From positions 65,794-129,793 of the forward strand of contig JBGSYZ010000011.1 in assembly GCA_041750655.1 (NCBI GenBank): DNA of 64,000 nt. The letters run 5' to 3'. This document shows positions 25,182-58,144 of the stretch, piece after piece. The notes under the pieces were generated by a model. That model saw nothing but the letters and a program-made list of their open reading frames with translations, was not told the origin of the DNA and ran no database searches. How positions within the stretch are numbered: the stretch's first letter is position 1; each line of letters begins with the position of its first letter. This DNA comes from Minisyncoccia bacterium. GTDB lineage: Bacteria > Patescibacteriota > Minisyncoccia > Phycocordibacterales > UBA918. Made by a program: the position numbers and the translations under genes.

Positions 25182-25856
25182 TTAAAAACTAAATTCAACA
25201 TCGGTAGCAGCAGTGGCCTCTACCTCATCTGGTGCTGTTACGCCTATAGCGACTTCAATTTGTTTCTTAAAATCATCAAAGGTAGTAATTTCTATTTTTT
25301 CACCATTTAAGTAAAATGTTGGGGTGGCACTAATTTTAAGAACTCGTCCTTCGCGCATATCATTTTGAACCGCCTCCCGTACGACTGATGAATTAACATC
25401 ACGGTTAAATTTGTCTACATCAAGACCCAGCTCTTCAGCATAGCTGGAAAATAGATTTTTAGGATTGATATTTTGACTCCAATTTTTTTGACGTTCAAAT
25501 AGAATATCGTGCATTTCCCAAAACTTTCCTTGTACTCCAGCCGCTTCAGCTACACGAGCGGCTAATTCTGCGCTAGGGTGAATTGAGATAAGCGGAAAAT
25601 GATGGTACTCAAATCGAATCTGATCCCCATACTCATCAATAATATTGCTAACCACCGGTTCAAACTGCCCACATGCCGGACACTGAAAATCACTGTGTTC
25701 TGATAACACTACAGTTGCTTCAGGATTGCCCTTTACTTTTTCTTGTAGAGTGATGACTTCATCTGTTCCTCCACCTTTCACATTTGAATACACTAAAGCC
25801 CCGCCCAGCAGAACAATAAAAGAAACAGCAATAATAACCAGTGATGATTTTTCCAT
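25182..25856 (-). CDS. DsbA-family thiol:disulfide oxidoreductase (thioredoxin fold), membrane-anchored
   Basis: CxxC active site in FQCPACGQF. Thioredoxin-like layout with an N-terminal TM helix. Confidence 0.7.
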   Translation of the reverse strand: MEKSSLVIIAVSFIVLLGGALVYSNVKGGGTDEVITLQEKVKGNPEATVVLSEHSDFQCPACGQFEPVVSNIIDEYGDQIRFEYHHFPLISIHPSAELAARVAEAAGVQGKFWEMHDILFERQKNWSQNINPKNLFSSYAEELGLDVDKFNRDVNSSVVREAVQNDMREGRVLKISATPTFYLNGEKIEITTFDDFKKQIEVAIGVTAPDEVEATAATDVEFSF

Positions 25857-28749: not shown

Positions 28750-29661
28750 CTACCTCGCTACATTCTTATTCTCAAAGTAACTAAACAAAGCTTTTACTCC
28801 GGCCATATTTTGAACCCATTCGATTGATTGATAACTCTTTAATTCAACCGTAATCGCTGGAATACCAATGGAGGCTAACCAACCTTCAGCGTCGCCAGTG
28901 ATGGGATAAGCGGTAAAAGCCGGAACAGCACCGTACCCGGCGGCATTGGCGTAGGCATCCATGATGGCAAGAGTTTCTGGTAGTGGTCCAGATTCACACT
29001 CTGAAGCGTAGACATTGTTGGCTTGTGAGTGCCAAAAGACAACCGCGTCTGGTGTATTTGCCAAAACATAGTCTCGCAGAGCTGCTGCTTCTGGCTCAGA
29101 GAATGGCGCTGTCCCAGCACTCACCGGATCACCACGCCAGGTACTTTGTGGTGCCCACTTACAATCAAAGTTTCGGTTGAGATCCACATAATTCTTATTG
29201 AAGCGACCATCAGCCACCCGAGTGGTTGGGTCGGTGATGTCGGTGGCCGCGAAGCGGCCACCGGTACCGGTCACCATCGCCAAACCATCAGGGTTGATTG
29301 ACGGAATTACCGCCACACGCACCCCTTCCGGTATCATGTCCAAATTTTCTCCCAAATAATCTATAAACTCGTACGCCAAAAGAGCACTGTTCCACTCATA
29401 CCCACCGTGCATACCACCCACAAACAGAATCTCAGTCTCCCCGTTACCAAATACGTACGCTGAAATATCTCGCCCCGCTACCGAATGTCCAATGACCGAA
29501 ATTTCAGGGTACGAAGGAGTGGGTTCTTCATCAACTACCGGTGTTTCATCAATTACCGGCGGTAACTCTACTTTAGTTTCTGGCCAAAAGAATATCGCTA
29601 ATCCGACCGCTAACAAAATGGCTAAAAGCGCCCCAATTACAAACTTCAACTTACTCGGCAT
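28750..29661 (-). CDS. M14-family zinc carboxypeptidase, secreted
   Basis: Signal/TM at the N-terminus. GGMHGGYEWNSALLAYEF is the zinc-binding HxxE region. NPDG and DLNRNFDCKW are M14 motifs. Confidence 0.7.
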   Translation of the reverse strand: MPSKLKFVIGALLAILLAVGLAIFFWPETKVELPPVIDETPVVDEEPTPSYPEISVIGHSVAGRDISAYVFGNGETEILFVGGMHGGYEWNSALLAYEFIDYLGENLDMIPEGVRVAVIPSINPDGLAMVTGTGGRFAATDITDPTTRVADGRFNKNYVDLNRNFDCKWAPQSTWRGDPVSAGTAPFSEPEAAALRDYVLANTPDAVVFWHSQANNVYASECESGPLPETLAIMDAYANAAGYGAVPAFTAYPITGDAEGWLASIGIPAITVELKSYQSIEWVQNMAGVKALFSYFENKNVAR

Positions 29662-30586
29662 AATGATTTAACACCGCTTCAATTCCCTTCACGTTCTTAC
29701 TCCACTCTGTATCGGTGTGAGTGGTCAAAAGAACGCTTATGGCCGGAACACCTTCCTTAGCCAACCAATTCACCATGTCACCAGTAATCGCATAGTAATC
29801 AAACTCTTCGTATCCTTTATAGCCTGAAGCTTGGGCATAGAGCTTGGTTAGTTCTTTCGTTTCAGCAGACACGCCGTTCTTACAACTAGAAGAATACACA
29901 CCACCGGCGGCACTATACCAAGTTATGACTGCCGCTGGCTTACGGGACTCAATATAACCACGCATGGCATCGGCTTCTGGTTCTGAAAAAGGTGCGCTTC
30001 CCCCACTCACTGTTTTATTCTGCCAGGTTCCTTTTTCCTGCCATTCACAATCAAAGTTTCGGTTAAGATCAACGCCGTTAGCGTTAAATCTTCCTTCTGT
30101 AGTATTTCCCTTTACATCAGTTGGTGAAAAGTAACCAAGTTTGCCAGTTACTTTCTCAAGCCCATCCGGGTTAAGGACTGGTATGACGCTCACCTTCACT
30201 CCATCCGGAATTGTGTCTGGATTAGCTTCTAGATAATCCATGAGTTCATACGCCACAAGCGCAGTGTTCCAAGAGTAGCCACCATGAATACCACCTACAA
30301 ACAGAACTTCGGTATCACCAGAACCAAAGTGATATGCGGTTAAATCATTACCATCAACTGAACGTCCAAAAACAGTTTTCGTTTCATCAATAACTTCTGG
30401 CAACGGGTCGGCACCGTCACCGATACCCTCATCTGGTTCAACTGGCAAAACGTCACCAGACATTTCCGAACCAGAACCAGGGGTTTTGTTGTCTACTTTG
30501 GTAGTTTCAGAAGACTTTTGTAATACGTAATACACTCCAAATCCAAGCGCTAATAACAAAATAATTGCAATAATGGTATTTTTCAT
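29651..30586 (-). CDS. M14-family zinc carboxypeptidase, secreted (tandem paralog)
   Basis: A paralog of the downstream gene with the same motifs (GGIHGGYSWNTALVAYEL, NPDG, DLNRNFDCEW). It overlaps its neighbour by 11 nt. Confidence 0.7.
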   Translation of the reverse strand: MKNTIIAIILLLALGFGVYYVLQKSSETTKVDNKTPGSGSEMSGDVLPVEPDEGIGDGADPLPEVIDETKTVFGRSVDGNDLTAYHFGSGDTEVLFVGGIHGGYSWNTALVAYELMDYLEANPDTIPDGVKVSVIPVLNPDGLEKVTGKLGYFSPTDVKGNTTEGRFNANGVDLNRNFDCEWQEKGTWQNKTVSGGSAPFSEPEADAMRGYIESRKPAAVITWYSAAGGVYSSSCKNGVSAETKELTKLYAQASGYKGYEEFDYYAITGDMVNWLAKEGVPAISVLLTTHTDTEWSKNVKGIEAVLNHYAE

Positions 30587-36077: not shown

Positions 36078-37013
36078 ATGAAAATTCTTATCTATTTTGT
36101 GTTTGTACTAGTGATTATTAGCGGATCTTATGCTGCATATAATTTTTATACTACACCGGCAGCAGTACCTACTCCAACTCCAATAGTAGCCACTTCCACA
36201 CCAACAGTAGTTGGCCAAGCCACCTATCAATGTGACGGTGATAAAATTCTTGAAGCTACTTTTTTTGAAGACGCCGCTAAAGCCGTCGCATCAGTACCAG
36301 GAGAGCCACCAGTACCAATTGGCTCAGTCAATCTATCAATTAATGGCGTCCCGAGTGCGGCCCTTATGCAAACCATTTCTGCCGACGGTGCCCGCTACGC
36401 TACTCCTGATGACTCATTTGTATTTTGGAGCAAAGGCAACGAAGCCTTAGTGCTAGAGGAAGGCGAACAAAAAAATTATACCGGGTGTATTGTTATAGCG
36501 AACGATCCTGGCGGCTTACCTGAAATATATGCTAGTAGCACCCAAGGGTTTTCGCTCCGCTACCCAGCTGATTTTACAGTGGATGATACCTACCAGTACG
36601 ATGACTTGGGACCAGACAAAATTATTCCGGGTATCAAATTTACCATTGCTGAGTCAATGGCGACTAGTACTAATCTAAGCTCTAACAGCTATCTTAGTAT
36701 CGAACATATTGAAAGTCCCGATGCGACCTGCACACCAGAAGTATTCTTAAGTTCTGTACATGGCAGCAGCACTCCAGTTACCAGCACCAATGATGTCACC
36801 TATCTAATGGCTTCCTCTACCGAGGCGGCGGCTGGGAATCGGTATGAAGAGTACGTATTTACCATTGAAGGTTTAGCCCGCTGTCAGGCCATTCGTTATT
36901 TTATTCACTACGGAGTATTTGAAAATTATGAACCTGGAACAGTTACTGAATTTGATACAGCCAGCCTACTATCTGAATTTGATAAAATCCGCGATACGGT
37001 GATTTTTAACTAG
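36078..37013 (+). CDS. secreted hypothetical protein with Thr/Pro-rich linker (311 aa)
   Basis: Signal/TM followed by a TPAAVPTPTPIVATSTPT linker. Confidence 0.4.
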   Translation: MKILIYFVFVLVIISGSYAAYNFYTTPAAVPTPTPIVATSTPTVVGQATYQCDGDKILEATFFEDAAKAVASVPGEPPVPIGSVNLSINGVPSAALMQTISADGARYATPDDSFVFWSKGNEALVLEEGEQKNYTGCIVIANDPGGLPEIYASSTQGFSLRYPADFTVDDTYQYDDLGPDKIIPGIKFTIAESMATSTNLSSNSYLSIEHIESPDATCTPEVFLSSVHGSSTPVTSTNDVTYLMASSTEAAAGNRYEEYVFTIEGLARCQAIRYFIHYGVFENYEPGTVTEFDTASLLSEFDKIRDTVIFN

Positions 37014-38750: not shown

Positions 38751-39602
38751 TTAGCGATAATATACCTCGGTTCGAACGAGTTCCCGAAGTGATGCTATAT
38801 CCCCTTTTAAATCAGTACTACCGAGAACCACATACCCGACTAGCGCGTTTTTGTTCTTAGGAAATTGCTCATTAAACACAGCGACTGCCGTTCGACCAGC
38901 TTCTGGTGTGTAGCCATGTTTACCGCCGGCGTAGCCAGCATTAGTCACGAAGGGATTATTGTTTTGCCAGCCGTGTTTCTGGAATAAGAATTGTTTGAGT
39001 TTGGTAATATCAACAATGTGTGGCTGCTCTTTGTATATTACATTCGTAAGTCGAACCAAATCTAACACTGAACTTTTGTTTTCTGGTGACAACCCGCTCG
39101 CATCTTTAAACGAAGTAGAATTAAGTCCTTTGGCAGCCACAAAACTATTCATACTACTGATAAGTTCTCCGGGCGGAAGCGAACTTTCCAGAGTAGCGGC
39201 GGCGTCGTTGGATGATTCTAAAAGCAAAGGAAATAACAGCTGCTCACGAGACAACACTTCTCCAGGGGTAAGCCCACCAGCTCGGCCTTCGGTTGAGACG
39301 TCTCGCCAGGAAGTGGTAGTCGTGTATGTCATGTCATAGCTCCCGAGTAAGGTGGCAGCTGTAGCGAGTTTGGTGACCGAAGCAATTGGCAGCACCATGT
39401 TTTCATTTTCAGCAAACAATATATCACCAGTTTCAAGAGAAAATACCGCCCAGGCAGTGGCAGTAATTTCGGTCGATTGCTCACCAACAACATGAAGCGA
39501 TGCCTGATTGTAATAGATTGGTAAGTAGCGAGCTGATAACAATACGCCGACCATAGCAATCCCCACACACACAATAGCGCCAATAGTAATTCGACCTAAC
39601 AT
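38751..39602 (-). CDS. D-alanyl-D-alanine carboxypeptidase (peptidase S11, PBP5/DacA-like)
   Basis: SxxK (ASVTK), SxN (ESSND) and KTG-like (GGKHGYT) motifs. N-terminal TM. Confidence 0.7.
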   Translation of the reverse strand: MLGRITIGAIVCVGIAMVGVLLSARYLPIYYNQASLHVVGEQSTEITATAWAVFSLETGDILFAENENMVLPIASVTKLATAATLLGSYDMTYTTTTSWRDVSTEGRAGGLTPGEVLSREQLLFPLLLESSNDAAATLESSLPPGELISSMNSFVAAKGLNSTSFKDASGLSPENKSSVLDLVRLTNVIYKEQPHIVDITKLKQFLFQKHGWQNNNPFVTNAGYAGGKHGYTPEAGRTAVAVFNEQFPKNKNALVGYVVLGSTDLKGDIASLRELVRTEVYYR

Positions 39603-53195: not shown

Positions 53196-53266
53196 GGGCC
53201 TATAGTTTAGTGGTAGAATGCTGGTCTCCAAAACCAGCGGCCGTGGTTCGAGTCCACGTGGGCCCG
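53196..53266 (+). tRNA. tRNA-Trp (anticodon CCA)
   Basis: Acceptor GGGCCTA/TGGGCCC (one G-U), anticodon stem CTGGT/ACCAG, loop CTCCAAA, T-arm CGTGG-TTCGAGT-CCACG, discriminator G. CCA is not encoded. Confidence 0.85.
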
Positions 53267-53465
53267 CAGCAGCAAAAGAAAATGACCGAAACAGATGTTT
53301 CGGTCATTTTCTTTTAGCAAGCCAACTGCTTGGCTTGCGGCTGCCGCGGGAGGCGGAGCGCTGTGAGAAATTCATTTCTAGAATTTCGAACCGCGAGCCG
53401 GGGTCGAAGGTACTTAGTAGAATCAGAGCAAAGCGAATGATTATACTTAGTAACCTGTGACCGCC
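53267..53465 (+). repeat. tRNA-trailer structured repeat, copy A (terminator hairpin + conserved hairpin AGCAAGCCAA-CTGC-TTGGCTTGC + segment complementary to tRNA-Trp 3' end + about 100-nt conserved tail)
   Basis: Aligned by eye to copies B and C. GGCTGCCGCGGG is complementary to the tRNA-Trp 3' end CCCGCAGCAGC with one mismatch. Confidence 0.65.
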
Positions 53466-53528
53466 ATTGAAAACATCCAGCATACACTGGGTATTTTTTA
53501 CCCCACATATCAGTTCAGAACTTTAGTA

Positions 53529-53556
53529 TTGACAAAATATTATTTTAGTGTATTAT
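53529..53556 (+). promoter_or_regulatory. sigma-70-type promoter TTGACA-16nt-TATTAT driving the small high-GC ORF
   Basis: Read directly. A GGAGCA RBS lies 8 nt before the ATG at 53592. Confidence 0.6.
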
Positions 53557-53591
53557 GTGTTTCAGGTAATACAACGGTAGGAGCACCGACA

Positions 53592-53840
53592 ATGGAAGAT
53601 ACCGACCTCACCATACAGCAGATGGATCGCGGACCCTTCGAGGGCAAGTGGTTCTGTCACCGCAACGAAGGCATGGAGTACCTCCATTCCGACGGCTCGT
53701 GGCAGATGATGGCTGGCAAAACGGCCTACTTCGACTCCGAAGAGGACATCGAGGCCCTGCTCGACCGGCTGGACGAGGACGCCGGACAGGCCTACCTCGA
53801 CTTCCAGGAAGAACAGGTAGGTCGCACGGGCTATCCGTGA
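53592..53840 (+). CDS. hypothetical acidic small protein (82 aa) of atypically high GC; MEDTDLTIQQMDRGPFEGKWFCHRNEGMEYLHSDGSWQMMAGKTAYFDSEEDIEALLDRLDEDAGQAYLDFQEEQVGRTGYP
   Basis: I chose the internal start because it has a consensus promoter and an SD. The GC content is visibly far above the flanks (about 60% by eye, not computed). The overlapping antisense and out-of-frame ORFs here are artefacts of the high GC. Confidence 0.5.
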   Translation: MEDTDLTIQQMDRGPFEGKWFCHRNEGMEYLHSDGSWQMMAGKTAYFDSEEDIEALLDRLDEDAGQAYLDFQEEQVGRTGYP

Positions 53841-54209: not shown

Positions 54210-55298
54210 TTACCAAGCTACGTGAAGGTGAGTACCGCTACCAGCATTGTGTATCAAAGCTTCTCTTGCTCCGTTAGACTTGGCCCACTGCTGAGCAGCT
54301 TGCATTTGTGCTTGTGTCCCCACAAAATCTGCCGCTCGGCCAGTTAAATGGTATGAGGTTGAAACCCCGCCAGCATTGGCATTTTGGGTTGCTGTCCGAT
54401 ATCCGCTAGTAACAGTTAAACCAAAATTATTTGCAATATATTGCACATTACTTACAATACCACTATCAAATTGTCTGCCACTATAACTAGTTAGTGAACC
54501 ACTAGGACTAACTGTAGAAGTAAATCCACTATTAAATACACACGAACCAAATGCGTCAAAAGTATAGCCGGGTGGGCAACTACCCCCGGGTGACTGCAGT
54601 ATCGGCCCAGAAGCAACCACACACGAACCAAATGCGTCCATGGTATACCATTGTGGACACTGGCCTCCTGCTGAAGGTAACACTACCGTTTGAATACACG
54701 TGCCAAATGAATCCATAGCATACCCAAGTGGACAATGACCTCCTGGTGAAGGTAAAACTGACTGCTGCTGGTTGGTTGGGTCAAACGGTTGAACAGCAAT
54801 TACCATTTGCCACTCAGATGATCCAGGCAAAACAGCTGTTCCGTCATTTAATTGAACCTGACTTGAACAAGTAATTTGATTCATTTGATTCCACGGCATT
54901 GGGGAGTTGGTACCAAATTGCACTTCACCGTTTGGCAACAAAGACTTAAGCATCACGTCAATGACAAGCCACGCGGTGAGAATAATGATGAGACCAATCA
55001 GCACGTTGGTCATTACCCCTTTCCCTTTTTTAACTTGTGCGGCATTTCCAGCTGAACTAAGCATAAGCCACCCAGCATATATAAAAATAATTACTGAAAT
55101 TCCGACAGCCAAAACAATGATTATATCAGTGACGTTGTTAGCTAGTTGAACAATCTGACAGGTACCACAATCATCACCCGAACAAGGAACCAGAGGATTC
55201 GTCTGGGCACCAGTACTAAACGGTACAAATAAAACAAAAAGAAAAAAGAAAAAAGAAAATGAGATGATTTTATTTGCTGCAGAAAGTGAACAATACAT
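54210..55298 (-). CDS. secreted peptidoglycan hydrolase: N-terminal Cys-rich two-helix (T4SS/conjugative-pilin-like) domain, three GGxCPxGYxxDxFGxC repeats, C-terminal peptidase M15 (zinc D-Ala-D-Ala carboxypeptidase/endopeptidase) domain
   Basis: M15 motifs SYHLTGRAADF (SxHxxGxAxD) and THLHVAW (HxH). The N-terminal PLVPCSGDDCGTCQIV plus two hydrophobic helices are shared with the adjacent paralog. Confidence 0.6.
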   Translation of the reverse strand: MYCSLSAANKIISFSFFFFLFVLFVPFSTGAQTNPLVPCSGDDCGTCQIVQLANNVTDIIIVLAVGISVIIFIYAGWLMLSSAGNAAQVKKGKGVMTNVLIGLIIILTAWLVIDVMLKSLLPNGEVQFGTNSPMPWNQMNQITCSSQVQLNDGTAVLPGSSEWQMVIAVQPFDPTNQQQSVLPSPGGHCPLGYAMDSFGTCIQTVVLPSAGGQCPQWYTMDAFGSCVVASGPILQSPGGSCPPGYTFDAFGSCVFNSGFTSTVSPSGSLTSYSGRQFDSGIVSNVQYIANNFGLTVTSGYRTATQNANAGGVSTSYHLTGRAADFVGTQAQMQAAQQWAKSNGAREALIHNAGSGTHLHVAW

Positions 55299-55307
55299 AG
55301 GAATTCA

Positions 55308-56366
55308 TTATGGCATCGGAGCTTGGCCCGCCATACCTAGAATGTTGTTTACATAGTTTCTAGTTTCAGCATAGCCGGAGTTGGCTGTACACTGCCACCA
55401 TGTTTGTCCGGGACAGGTCACACTTTGATTGAGTGCCCTTGGGCCACCATTGTAATACGCAAGAGCATTGGCCACATTACCACTACTGGCTTGTAGTCCT
55501 TGTCCAAAGTATGTCACTCCTAGCTGCATGTTTATTTGTGGGTGCGAAGTGAGATATGACTGTATTTGTGAATTGCTCATACCAGATAAATCACAAAGAC
55601 CAGTTTGTGAGCATAGTTGACTTGCAGTGCCTGGCATTATTTGAAAGATTCCAGCTGCTCCCGCGGGACTAATCGCATTAGGATTGTACCCAGACTCTTG
55701 GTACATTTGCGCTTGCAAAATCCTACAGTACGCGCCCAGACCTTGTGAGGAAGCAATGCTACACAACTGTGTCGCATACGGATCATTTGGGTTATAAGCT
55801 ACGCCGGCGGCTGTTGCCAATTGTTGCGGTGTCATTTGTGTCGCATTTAAACCAGTCGCTGTCACTCGGGGCCAGTTACTCGACCCGGGCAGATGTGCAA
55901 TACCGTCACTTAGTGGAACTTGGTTAGAACACGACACCTGATTCCATGGTAACCACTGGCCAGCAGACATCTGGACTTGACCACTATTTTTTAGAAGTGC
56001 TTTCATGCCTGTATCAATAATAAGCCAGGCCACTAACATTAAAATAAGACCGATTAAAACATTCTTAAGCATGTTCTTGGCTCGAGTGTATTCCGATGGG
56101 TTGCCACCAGAGATAAGAAGATTGAATCCTCCCCAGGCTGCGAGCAGGACTACCCCCACAATCATTATCATAATGATAAATCGCAATACCCGGTTGCCGA
56201 GAACCACAATTTGGCACGTACCGCAGTCAGTACCCGAGCAAGGCACCAGGCCGCCTGTATCTCCCACTAGTGTGTTACCAGGAATACTTTGAGCCAAGAC
56301 AAACATTGGCAGTGCCAAAGTTAAAAAACCAAGAAAATATACGAGGCCGCGCTTCATAAAATGCAT
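55308..56366 (-). CDS. secreted peptidoglycan hydrolase: N-terminal Cys-rich two-helix (pilin-like) domain fused to lytic transglycosylase (SLT/GH23) domain
   Basis: SLT motif AQMYQESGYNPNAISPAGAAGIFQIMPGTA (ES...GxxQxM). The N-terminal GGLVPCSGTDCGTCQIV plus two TM helices are paralogous to the upstream gene. Confidence 0.65.
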   Translation of the reverse strand: MHFMKRGLVYFLGFLTLALPMFVLAQSIPGNTLVGDTGGLVPCSGTDCGTCQIVVLGNRVLRFIIMIMIVGVVLLAAWGGFNLLISGGNPSEYTRAKNMLKNVLIGLILMLVAWLIIDTGMKALLKNSGQVQMSAGQWLPWNQVSCSNQVPLSDGIAHLPGSSNWPRVTATGLNATQMTPQQLATAAGVAYNPNDPYATQLCSIASSQGLGAYCRILQAQMYQESGYNPNAISPAGAAGIFQIMPGTASQLCSQTGLCDLSGMSNSQIQSYLTSHPQINMQLGVTYFGQGLQASSGNVANALAYYNGGPRALNQSVTCPGQTWWQCTANSGYAETRNYVNNILGMAGQAPMP

Positions 56367-56638: not shown

Positions 56639-56724
56639 GCGTCGGTGGTGGAGTGGTCTATCACATCAGACTGTAAATCTGACGGCTTATGCCTTCGCTG
56701 GTTCGAATCCAGCCCGGCGCACCA
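56639..56724 (+). tRNA. tRNA-Tyr (anticodon GUA), long variable arm, CCA encoded
   Basis: Acceptor GCGTCGG/CCGGCGC (one G-U), anticodon stem TCAGA/TCTGA, loop CTGTAAA, T-arm GCTGG-TTCGAAT-CCAGC, discriminator A, then CCA. Confidence 0.85.
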
Positions 56725-57622: not shown

Positions 57623-58144
57623 ATGAATATAAGGATTGTGGGCGCTAGCCTTCTGGTATTCGTGTGCAGCTGTGCTGTGCCAGACCAAAAACCATTTGAC
57701 TACCCGCCCAAGGAGGCTCGATCCTGCTTGGCAAAAAGTTTAACCACTATGAAGGAGGACCCCAAAAACGCGCTTACGATTTTTGATGTGCCTAGCCTGT
57801 CTGCAAAAATTCGTAAGTATAGCCAAAACGAGGACATTACCGACGAACAAGTTGCTATCGAACTCGTGGCTATGGTATCTAAATACCAAAACGATTTACC
57901 ACGGTTGCTGCCCCCAGGCTTGATACATGTTTCAATGTACACTTCTATGAGTGATAACACGTATACTATGCAAGCCAATGTACCAGTACACACGGCAAAC
58001 AAAAAACAATTCCTGGTGACGTTGGTTCCCACAAACAATTCTTGTCGCCTGAAGGAGATGACTATAAACGGTTTCTCGTTTTCAGCACTAATTGCTGGAG
58101 TTTTAGCACCAGCTGATGATTACGAGAACTTTTATCATGACTAA
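57623..58144 (+). CDS. hypothetical secreted/lipoprotein-like protein (173 aa)
   Basis: Signal peptide with Cys at LLVFVCSCA, which is a possible lipobox. Confidence 0.4.
   Translation: MNIRIVGASLLVFVCSCAVPDQKPFDYPPKEARSCLAKSLTTMKEDPKNALTIFDVPSLSAKIRKYSQNEDITDEQVAIELVAMVSKYQNDLPRLLPPGLIHVSMYTSMSDNTYTMQANVPVHTANKKQFLVTLVPTNNSCRLKEMTINGFSFSALIAGVLAPADDYENFYHD

Follow-up and report, generated by a model that had tools for sequence, protein, structure and literature searches.

Members of the Pfam family PF18895 (T4SS_pilin, where T4SS stands for type IV secretion system) have been described as VirB2-like pilins of Patescibacteria, that is, proteins of about 100-150 amino acids (aa) that are often encoded in arrays near virB4 (Quinonero-Coronel et al. 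2025, PMC12102498; Wang et al. 2023, PMC10633639). Here, we analysed a 64-kb stretch of the genome of an ultra-small Patescibacteria/CPR bacterium (Minisyncoccia; contig JBGSYZ010000011.1, positions 65,794 to 129,793; hereafter the window, in whose own numbering all coordinates are given) and focus on two adjacent genes whose products resemble these pilins at their N-termini. Like the described PF18895 pilins, whose lineage it shares, the window pair has a signal peptide and a Cys motif as well as two hydrophobic helices with a short basic loop, but its members are 350-aa proteins that end in enzymes (a lytic transglycosylase and a zinc peptidase) and are encoded in a housekeeping locus. On balance, and with moderate confidence, we favour the view that they represent a core-genome, membrane-tethered, wall-cutting pair mounted on a disulfide-stapled, pilin-like anchor, whose most likely role would be to open or remodel the wall of its own cell near the membrane.

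The classical counterparts, VirB2 of Agrobacterium and TrbC of RP4 (PF04956), resemble the window pair in having a signal peptide and a two-helix hairpin with both ends outside (as predicted for the pair); unlike the pair, VirB2 bears no C-terminal cargo and its gene is part of a T4SS operon. VirB2 and TrbC are cyclised head to tail, and VirB2 is not known to have a Cys staple. In virB operons the pilin gene adjoins the lytic transglycosylase gene virB1. A closer analogy on the enzymatic side is offered by TraG of pIP501, PrgK of pCF10 and CwlT of ICEBs1, which, like the window pair, are membrane-anchored and extracytoplasmic and bring together glycan- and peptide-cutting domains (PMC12102498). 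These are, however, single polypeptides with one N-terminal anchor and a CHAP or NlpC/P60 domain, encoded inside T4SS clusters, whereas the window pair consists of two proteins, each with its own pilin-like hairpin, employs a LAS/M15 peptidase and occupies a core chromosomal locus; by these marks it is not VirB1-like, and the analogy that remains is functional. The catalytic domains of the pair align, with their motifs conserved, with those of Slt70-type GH23 enzymes and of the Streptomyces albus G zinc DD-peptidase (1LBU), which in contrast are soluble or lipid-anchored, none of them being known to have a pilin-like hairpin.

Both genes are encoded on the minus strand (as are all of their features given below) and are co-directional, with 9 bp between them. 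Gene 1 (55308..56366, 352 aa; 349 aa from the alternative start at Met4, 56357, taken by the public gene call) encodes the PF18895 pilin-like module followed by an SLT (GH23) lytic transglycosylase, and gene 2 (54210..55298, 362 aa) the same module followed by an M15/LAS zinc peptidase. Since the start of gene 2 is found 9 bp past the stop of gene 1, the two probably form one operon; a scan for promoters and terminators around both genes returned signal no better than that of shuffled sequence. Residues 1-164 of the two proteins are 44% identical (BLASTP, E-value 9e-39) and no alignment extends downstream, so that the original prediction, made from the letters of the window and their open reading frames (ORFs), was right in describing paralogous proteins with a common two-helix N-terminus and different hydrolase domains; both ORFs are present as it had them.

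The common N-terminal layout begins with a signal-like segment, which spans residues 1-26 in gene 1 (56289..56366; putative cleavage between VLAQ and S, placed by hydropathy and sequence) and residues 1-31 in gene 2 (55206..55298; putative cleavage between TGAQ and T, placed by hydropathy, with residues 4-28 modelled as a helix). It continues with the motif LVPCSG(D/T)DCGTCQIV (residues 40-54 of the SLT protein and 36-50 of the M15 protein), a long hydrophobic helix, a short basic loop (SAGNAAQVKKGKGVMTN and SGGNPSEYTRAKNMLKN in the two proteins, with three K/R and zero or one D/E each), a second helix (VLIGLI..(T/V)AWL(V/I)ID) and a W..C segment, seen in both proteins as PWNQ..CS.QV.L.DG and accompanied by LPGSS.W. 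The module as delimited by a local hidden Markov model (HMM) runs from the motif with Cys1-3, through helix 1, the basic loop and helix 2, to W..Cys4; it covers residues 39-156 of gene 1 (55899..56252, 131.6 bits) and residues 35-153 of gene 2 (54840..55196, 129 bits, also delimited in an AlphaFold2 model), and the same HMM detected no further copies in the window.

At their C-termini both proteins appear (as judged from sequence and model) to carry intact wall-hydrolase domains, one predicted to cut glycan and the other peptide. The SLT domain of gene 1 (residues 203-346, 55329..55760, delimited by the Slt70 alignment and motifs) scores 60.3 bits against Pfam SLT (PF01464, cut-off 21.3) and matches the catalytic domain of Slt70 with an E-value of 3e-9; its QES (residues 223-225, 55680-55700) falls on the QES of Slt70-type enzymes and, together with GIFQIMPGTA and AYYNGG, completes the set of features of GH23 family-1 lytic transglycosylases (HMM match, catalytic Glu in E-S, GxxQ and AYNxG motifs). 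The M15/LAS domain of gene 2 (residues 265-362, 54213..54506, modelled with a predicted local distance difference test score, pLDDT, above 92) scores 43.6 bits against Peptidase_M15_3 (PF08291, cut-off 23.2). Its best fold match is 1LBU (36% identity, probability 1.00), which it also matches in sequence (E-value 3.7e-5). Within it, SYHLTGRAAD (54327-54356) and HLH (within 54213-54230) supply the zinc ligands of LAS/M15 enzymes (H-x6-D ... H(-x-H)), and H317, D324, H357 and H359 vary little or not at all across 40 homologues. Except for AYYNGG, the SLT and M15 motifs just named had been anticipated.

The linker of gene 2 further contains three Cys-pair beta-hairpin repeats of the form GGxCPx[GW]YxxDxFGxC (residues 186-253, 54531..54758, located by regular expression), beginning GGHCPLGY.., GGQCPQWY.. 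and GGSCPPGY.. and modelled as three strand pairs (pLDDT 62-75). Three copies of GGxCPxGYxxDxFGxC had been expected; the number holds, and the consensus needs the amendment that the second copy has W for G. Such repeats are rare, being found in 8/372 relatives. An apparent match to the 'Pizza' designer beta-propeller was discarded as chance, having arisen by the summing of insignificant 26-residue hits (each with an i-Evalue of about 1e2).

PF18895, which we take to be the VirB2-like pilin family of Patescibacteria, recognizes the SLT protein with 36.6 bits and the M15 protein with 33.3 bits (58-67 of the 71 model positions covered), and both values exceed the gathering cut-off of 26.6 bits that defines membership. 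AlphaFold2 folded the isolated module into a two-helix hairpin (helices 24-59 and 64-101 in fragment numbering, mean pLDDT 72), and in the full M15 protein it placed the helices at residues 46-80 and 86-120 (pLDDT 82-94), with the signal helix before them and a low-confidence linker after; the expected topology, with a signal helix ahead of a two-helix hairpin, was thereby recovered by both hydropathy and modelling. Both proteins (by the same two approaches, with the cleavage of the signal peptide putative) show the combination of signal peptide, two hydrophobic helices and short charged loop that characterizes VirB2/TrbC pilins. The three K/R and zero or one D/E of each loop are compatible with a cytoplasmic location, and this basic character, taken together with the signal peptide, suggests an N-out/C-out topology. 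A profile of the module sequence had as its sole PDB matches the sensory rhodopsin transducer, at chance level and with no pilin among the matches; this candidate was rejected.

As to the more specific proposal that the module is of the VirB2/TrbC type, the evidence divides. PF18895 membership speaks for it, and in profile-profile comparison (hhalign) the module is colinear, helix-loop-helix, with eight annotated plasmid VirB2/TrbC pilins (probability 52%, E-value 1.5e-4), the module profile and the VirB2/TrbC alignment having ..IVDT.. at the end of helix 2 in common. The TrbC/VirB2 family PF04956, however, does not match the two proteins themselves (at E<=1); it does match 11/124 and 8/85 of their close relatives, with a best E-value of about 1e-6. 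Homology of the module to classical VirB2/TrbC pilins is, at the level of sequence profiles, plausible and not proven.

Four Cys residues are conserved overall, as had been proposed, but the motif ahead of the first helix, to which all four had been assigned, holds three of them: Cys1, Cys2 and Cys3 lie within LVPCSGTDCGTCQIV in gene 1 (56205..56249) and within LVPCSGDDCGTCQIV in gene 2 (55149..55193), and the fourth is found past helix 2, within PWNQVSCSNQVPLSDG in gene 1 (55902..55949; C146, the predicted partner of Cys3) and within PWNQMNQITCSSQVQLNDG in gene 2 (54840..54896; C144). By counting Cys residues in the HMM columns of modules aligned to the profile, we found Cys3 and Cys4 together in 241 of the 280 distinct modules and both missing from 37; Cys3 was present without Cys4 in 2 (one of which is truncated by the end of its contig) and Cys4 without Cys3 in 0 (Fisher 3.5e-44, uncorrected for shared ancestry); in 19 modules Cys1 and Cys2 were kept without Cys3/Cys4. 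An earlier, cruder count had given a hint of two possible exceptions to the Cys3/Cys4 coupling. From this pattern of co-occurrence we therefore predict a Cys1-Cys2 and a Cys3-Cys4 bond, i.e. two disulfides on the outer face that probably staple the hairpin, of which Cys3-Cys4 would link, outside the membrane, the beginning of helix 1 with the stretch that follows helix 2. The window also encodes a membrane-anchored, DsbA-like thioredoxin with a CPAC active site (25182-25856, minus strand), which is a plausible catalyst for the predicted disulfides of both the module and the Cys-pair repeats.

The fusion of such a module to wall-lytic domains had been thought unusual; it turns out to be common within Patescibacteria, and a relative is already named 'Peptidase M15/Type IV secretion system pilin' in one source. 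The PF18895+PF08291 architecture of the M15 protein recurs in about 45 cluster-level homologues from Kaiserbacteria and Paceibacteria. When the N-terminal 174 aa alone served as query, a word-indexed homologue search returned no matches; the module profile, run against 1.84 billion representatives (clusters at 50% identity), recovered 68,157 clusters at E<=1e-3 and 9,642 at E<=1e-10. Among the 124 best single-module proteins, the C-terminal Pfam matches were peptidoglycan hydrolases without exception (M15_3, VanY, M15_4, M15_2, Hedgehog-type LAS, Extensin-like_C, SLT, SLT_3, NlpC/P60 and CHAP).

A genome scan (one genome per species) yielded 78 loci, essentially all labelled Patescibacteria or subgroups thereof, in which the local HMM identified 167 module-bearing ORFs of three kinds. 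The first comprises free-standing short proteins (100-150 aa), encoded in arrays that reach seven genes; the second, 85 fusions (270-690 aa) whose recognised C-terminal domains are wall hydrolases except in two, which have immunoglobulin-like (Ig-like) domains; and the third, giant proteins of 840-2,524 aa. Big_5, TIG or Big_7 Ig-like domains were present in the giants tested and in three of the largest proteins of the fusion set, a seventh tested protein showing PF18895 only. Considering that at least five hydrolase families (M15 variants, SLT, SLT_3/c-type-lysozyme-like, NlpC/P60 and CHAP, Amidase_5) and giant Ig-like proteins are found as cargo, we reason that the module acts as a general N-terminal anchor or presentation device, with a wall hydrolase as its usual load.

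Several observations accompany this survey. The giants of loci L069, L075, L076, L079 and L085 (840-2,524 aa, N-terminal PF18895) are encoded next to relA and to an ORF that resembles class-II aminoacyl-tRNA synthetases (His-type hit); those scanned (L069, L076 and L085) have Big_5 or TIG domains and resemble adhesins mounted on a PF18895 anchor. The predicted proteins P0059, P0061, P0069 and P0085 contain 8 to 17 tandem PF18895 modules each (for example, 820 aa with 8 and 1,775 aa with 17); they represent either 'poly-pilin' genes born of fusion or arrays that gene calling has merged. The best genome match to the module (44%) was recovered from a 2-kb contig binned as an Archaeoglobaceae archaeon (L009, JALWBF010000174.1), which is probably mis-binned Patescibacteria DNA.

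The genomic surroundings of the fusion pair in the window consist of housekeeping genes only, in the order SerRS, DprA, TopA, RelA/SpoT, ParB, phosphoribosyltransferase, MiaA, tRNA-Trp, the two fusion genes, tRNA-Tyr, ClpB, class-V aminotransferase and IF-2. The order IF-2, aminotransferase, ClpB, fusions, MiaA, ParB, RelA, TopA is kept in an 82%-identical relative and in distant relatives, and about 50 of the 78 species-level loci have their fusions placed between clpB and miaA, mostly as two genes about 1.5 kb apart or closer (at some loci one or three). The first gene of the pair encodes an SLT enzyme in 6 loci (including the window) and a c-type-lysozyme-like enzyme in 25 others, as assigned by clustering and profile searches; the latter domain is GH22-like (E-value 1e-4 against human lysozyme, signature ES..G...D...GxFQIN), and Pfam SLT_3 was matched in 5/85 scanned fusions. 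The later genes, wherever classed, encode LAS-type zinc peptidases (M15_3, VanY/M15_4, a Hedgehog-like group and an HxxG..D...HxH group); at every locus in which both domains could be assigned to a class, the lysozyme-like enzyme precedes the zinc peptidase.

Within the window, the two tRNA genes that flank the pair (tRNA-Trp, 53196-53267, and tRNA-Tyr, 56639-56724) are both on the plus strand, and the small ORFs at 53457-53840 and 57623-58144 had no Pfam match. The c-type-lysozyme-like first genes occur over the range L012-L077 (alignment A7), and the window encodes a 311-aa secreted protein with an MliC domain (a membrane-bound inhibitor of c-type lysozyme; 36078-37013, plus strand), which could be a self-protection factor; the window's own first gene is, however, of the SLT type. 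Two tandem, paralogous M14 zinc carboxypeptidase genes (28750-30586, minus strand) and an S11 D-Ala-D-Ala carboxypeptidase (38751-39602) make the window rich in enzymes that process cell-wall peptides.

No VirB4, VirB6 or VirD4 is encoded in the 64-kb window (including 45 kb beyond the fusion neighbourhood), and no VirB4/VirD4 was recovered from the 78 related loci (+-10 kb) among the large ORFs tested with Pfam (a chosen subset and every Walker-A candidate). The linkage to these three genes, which the original prediction had proposed as a check, was accordingly not found, and the co-encoding with VirB4, VirB3, VirB6 and VirD4 that marks VirB2/TrbC pilins is absent from the window and was not seen among the ORFs tested in the related loci. 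The two proteins also depart from the classical format of a small pilin (about 70-120 aa when mature) free of further domains, being 352 and 362 aa long with SLT and M15 attached. As a candidate VirB4, a 650-aa Walker-A ORF in L026 was rejected, having matched no Pfam family and no VirB4 structure in the PDB. None of the short-PF18895 arrays that we sampled adjoins virB4; the genes beside them encode a sigma factor, YceG, GyrA and a solute-binding protein.

In eight loci (L044, L055, L058, L060, L063, L068, L072 and L074) such an array, made up of 3-6 short PF18895 genes, comes immediately downstream of an ORF of ~430 aa, which itself follows one of ~820-1,200 aa; these surroundings are not those of a T4SS. 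In L044 these two encode the solute-binding protein and GyrA, respectively, with the sigma factor and YceG further upstream; the ORFs of the other array loci are alike in size and order, and are known from size and order alone. In L044 and L072 the array is situated 2-4 kb from IF-2, aminotransferase and ClpB.

Taken as a membrane-tethered, wall-cutting pair, the two proteins would each be exported by means of a Sec signal peptide and held in the cytoplasmic membrane by the two-helix hairpin (N-terminus out, basic loop in the cytoplasm, C-terminus out), which the outer disulfides Cys1-Cys2 and Cys3-Cys4 would staple. A flexible linker of 45-110 residues would bring the enzyme into the wall, where the lytic transglycosylase of gene 1 would cut glycan strands and the M15/LAS zinc peptidase of gene 2 would cut peptide stems or cross-links; combined, the two activities could open peptidoglycan completely. 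In this way the cell would open or remodel its own wall close to the membrane and under control, a core-genome function equivalent to a VirB1-like job, with the hairpin serving as an anchor and perhaps also as a docking site for other PF18895 proteins. In favour of this reading we count the domains with their catalytic motifs, the predicted hairpin with its basic loop, the coupling of Cys3 and Cys4, the DsbA-like protein of the window, the recurrence and synteny of the fusions, and the co-evolution of adjacent hairpins (given below).

Several points weigh against this reading. A T4SS is possibly encoded elsewhere in the genome, outside the 64-kb window, because virB4 of Paceibacteria was located close to dnaA in a published survey (PMC12102498) and one related fusion is found 1.5 kb from dnaA. 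Homology to pilins could signify assembly into a filament and not residence in the membrane. Topology, disulfides and substrates enter the reading as predictions, and so does the choice of wall, which may be that of a host and not the cell's own. Lastly, about half of the C-terminal domains fused in relatives have no Pfam match, so that the claim that the cargo is always a hydrolase depends on the recognised half and on local motif and profile work.

The alternative that survives best, unlikely as we judge it, is that the two are enzyme-bearing pilins: a T4SS-like machine would pull their hairpins out of the membrane and build them into a conjugative-type pilus of short PF18895 proteins, or onto its tip, so that glycosidase and peptidase reach the wall of the host cell that the epibiont feeds on. 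The PF18895 membership, the PF04956 matches among relatives and the hhalign result with genuine VirB2 all lend themselves to this explanation. So do two weaker similarities, namely the near-full-length alignment of the hairpins (8-78 and 11-74 of 80 positions) to NCBIfam NF045849, the pilin-like Mbov_0395 family of a Mycoplasma integrative and conjugative element, at 22.3 and 21.2 bits (well below the cut-off of 40 bits, which makes them non-members), and the archaeal conjugation pilin 8dfu, which was the best non-enzyme match of the full-length fold search (probability 0.91, but with an E-value of 1.1); fold searches with the hairpin alone against solved structures, on the other hand, returned generic helical hairpins only. 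The occurrence of the module alone in arrays of up to seven, on hydrolases and on Ig-like giants is reminiscent of a set of major and minor pilins; VirB2-like arrays are reported to be essential in Saccharibacteria, and most VirB2-bearing Patescibacteria to have no recognisable VirB1 (PMC12102498, PMC10633639, PMC12857230).

Co-assembly would also fit the concerted evolution of adjacent hairpins. Those of the window are 48% identical to each other and at most 43% and 40% identical to same-position genes of other genomes (the close relative excluded), and in L008 (10001-12220) two adjacent genes have a 100%-identical hairpin of about 110 aa joined to unrelated enzymes (SLT and a Hedgehog-like LAS peptidase), which we take as a sign of recent gene conversion or module swapping; overall, adjacent hairpins evolve together or are homogenised. 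Against enzyme-bearing pilins stand the lack of VirB4, VirB6 and VirD4 in the window and among the tested ORFs, the location of even the sampled short-pilin arrays beside gyrA and a solute-binding protein gene, and the some 200 residues of C-terminal cargo that each subunit would have to accommodate in a tight helical packing.

Also unlikely, by our estimate slightly more so, is the idea that the proteins are working VirB2-type subunits in which the Cys3-Cys4 disulfide replaces head-to-tail cyclisation, an arrangement that would leave the C-terminus free for cargo and give Patescibacteria conjugative-type filaments tipped or decorated with muramidase, peptidase or adhesin. If so, the filaments would amount to an enzymatic drill against the host's wall or the cell's own, and the fused hydrolases would supply the VirB1 function that published surveys missed in most of these genomes.

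We regard as improbable the possibility that the module is a generic export or sorting tag, a lineage-specific signal from which some machinery would free the cargo (with or without cleavage) to give soluble, secreted lysins. It had been suggested beforehand that unrelated cargo in other genomes would betray such a tag, and the result is halfway: the module is indeed found on all of the hydrolase families listed above as well as on the Ig-rich giants, but the cargo is overwhelmingly made of wall hydrolases, and is in this sense functionally coherent, not arbitrary. The linker past Cys4 is poorly conserved and modelled with low confidence; no conserved cleavage motif, however, was seen past helix 2 beyond W..C, and the classical signal peptide ahead of the module would make a second export signal redundant.

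A lysis cassette of a prophage or integrative element, with a holin-like two-helix part fused to endolysins, is hardly credible: although a two-helix segment beside SLT/M15 is superficially like holin-endolysin modules, and M15 and SLT are common in phage lysins, the pair shows neither the mobile context nor the variable position of such cassettes and is found at a fixed site among clpB, miaA, parB, relA and topA in about 50 divergent genomes (a synteny that largely refutes this explanation), with no phage or integrase genes flanking it in the window, with unremarkable GC content, and with an N-out/C-out topology behind a signal peptide that is unlike that of holins.

The fusion architecture as such is visible in databases, and we found no prior analysis of it: the searchable literature held no discussion of pilin-module/hydrolase fusions, and M15 or SLT fusions are not mentioned in the supplements of the 2025 T4SS survey. 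The pairing of glycosidase and peptidase at clpB-miaA, the coupling of Cys3 with Cys4 and the homogenisation of the hairpins appear to be new.

Patescibacteria, which live attached to other cells, account for a large share of bacterial diversity, and their means of breaching or remodelling walls are little understood. VirB2-like pilins are the one feature that sets their T4SSs apart from those of other monoderms, and they are essential in one cultured species. In Paceibacteria and Kaiserbacteria the pilin-like module routinely carries wall hydrolases, and these fused enzymes are testable candidates for the 'missing VirB1' of Patescibacteria T4SSs. PF18895 proteins may be pilins, or they may instead form a lineage-specific device for surface anchoring; both outcomes would alter the reading of thousands of 'T4SS pilin' annotations.

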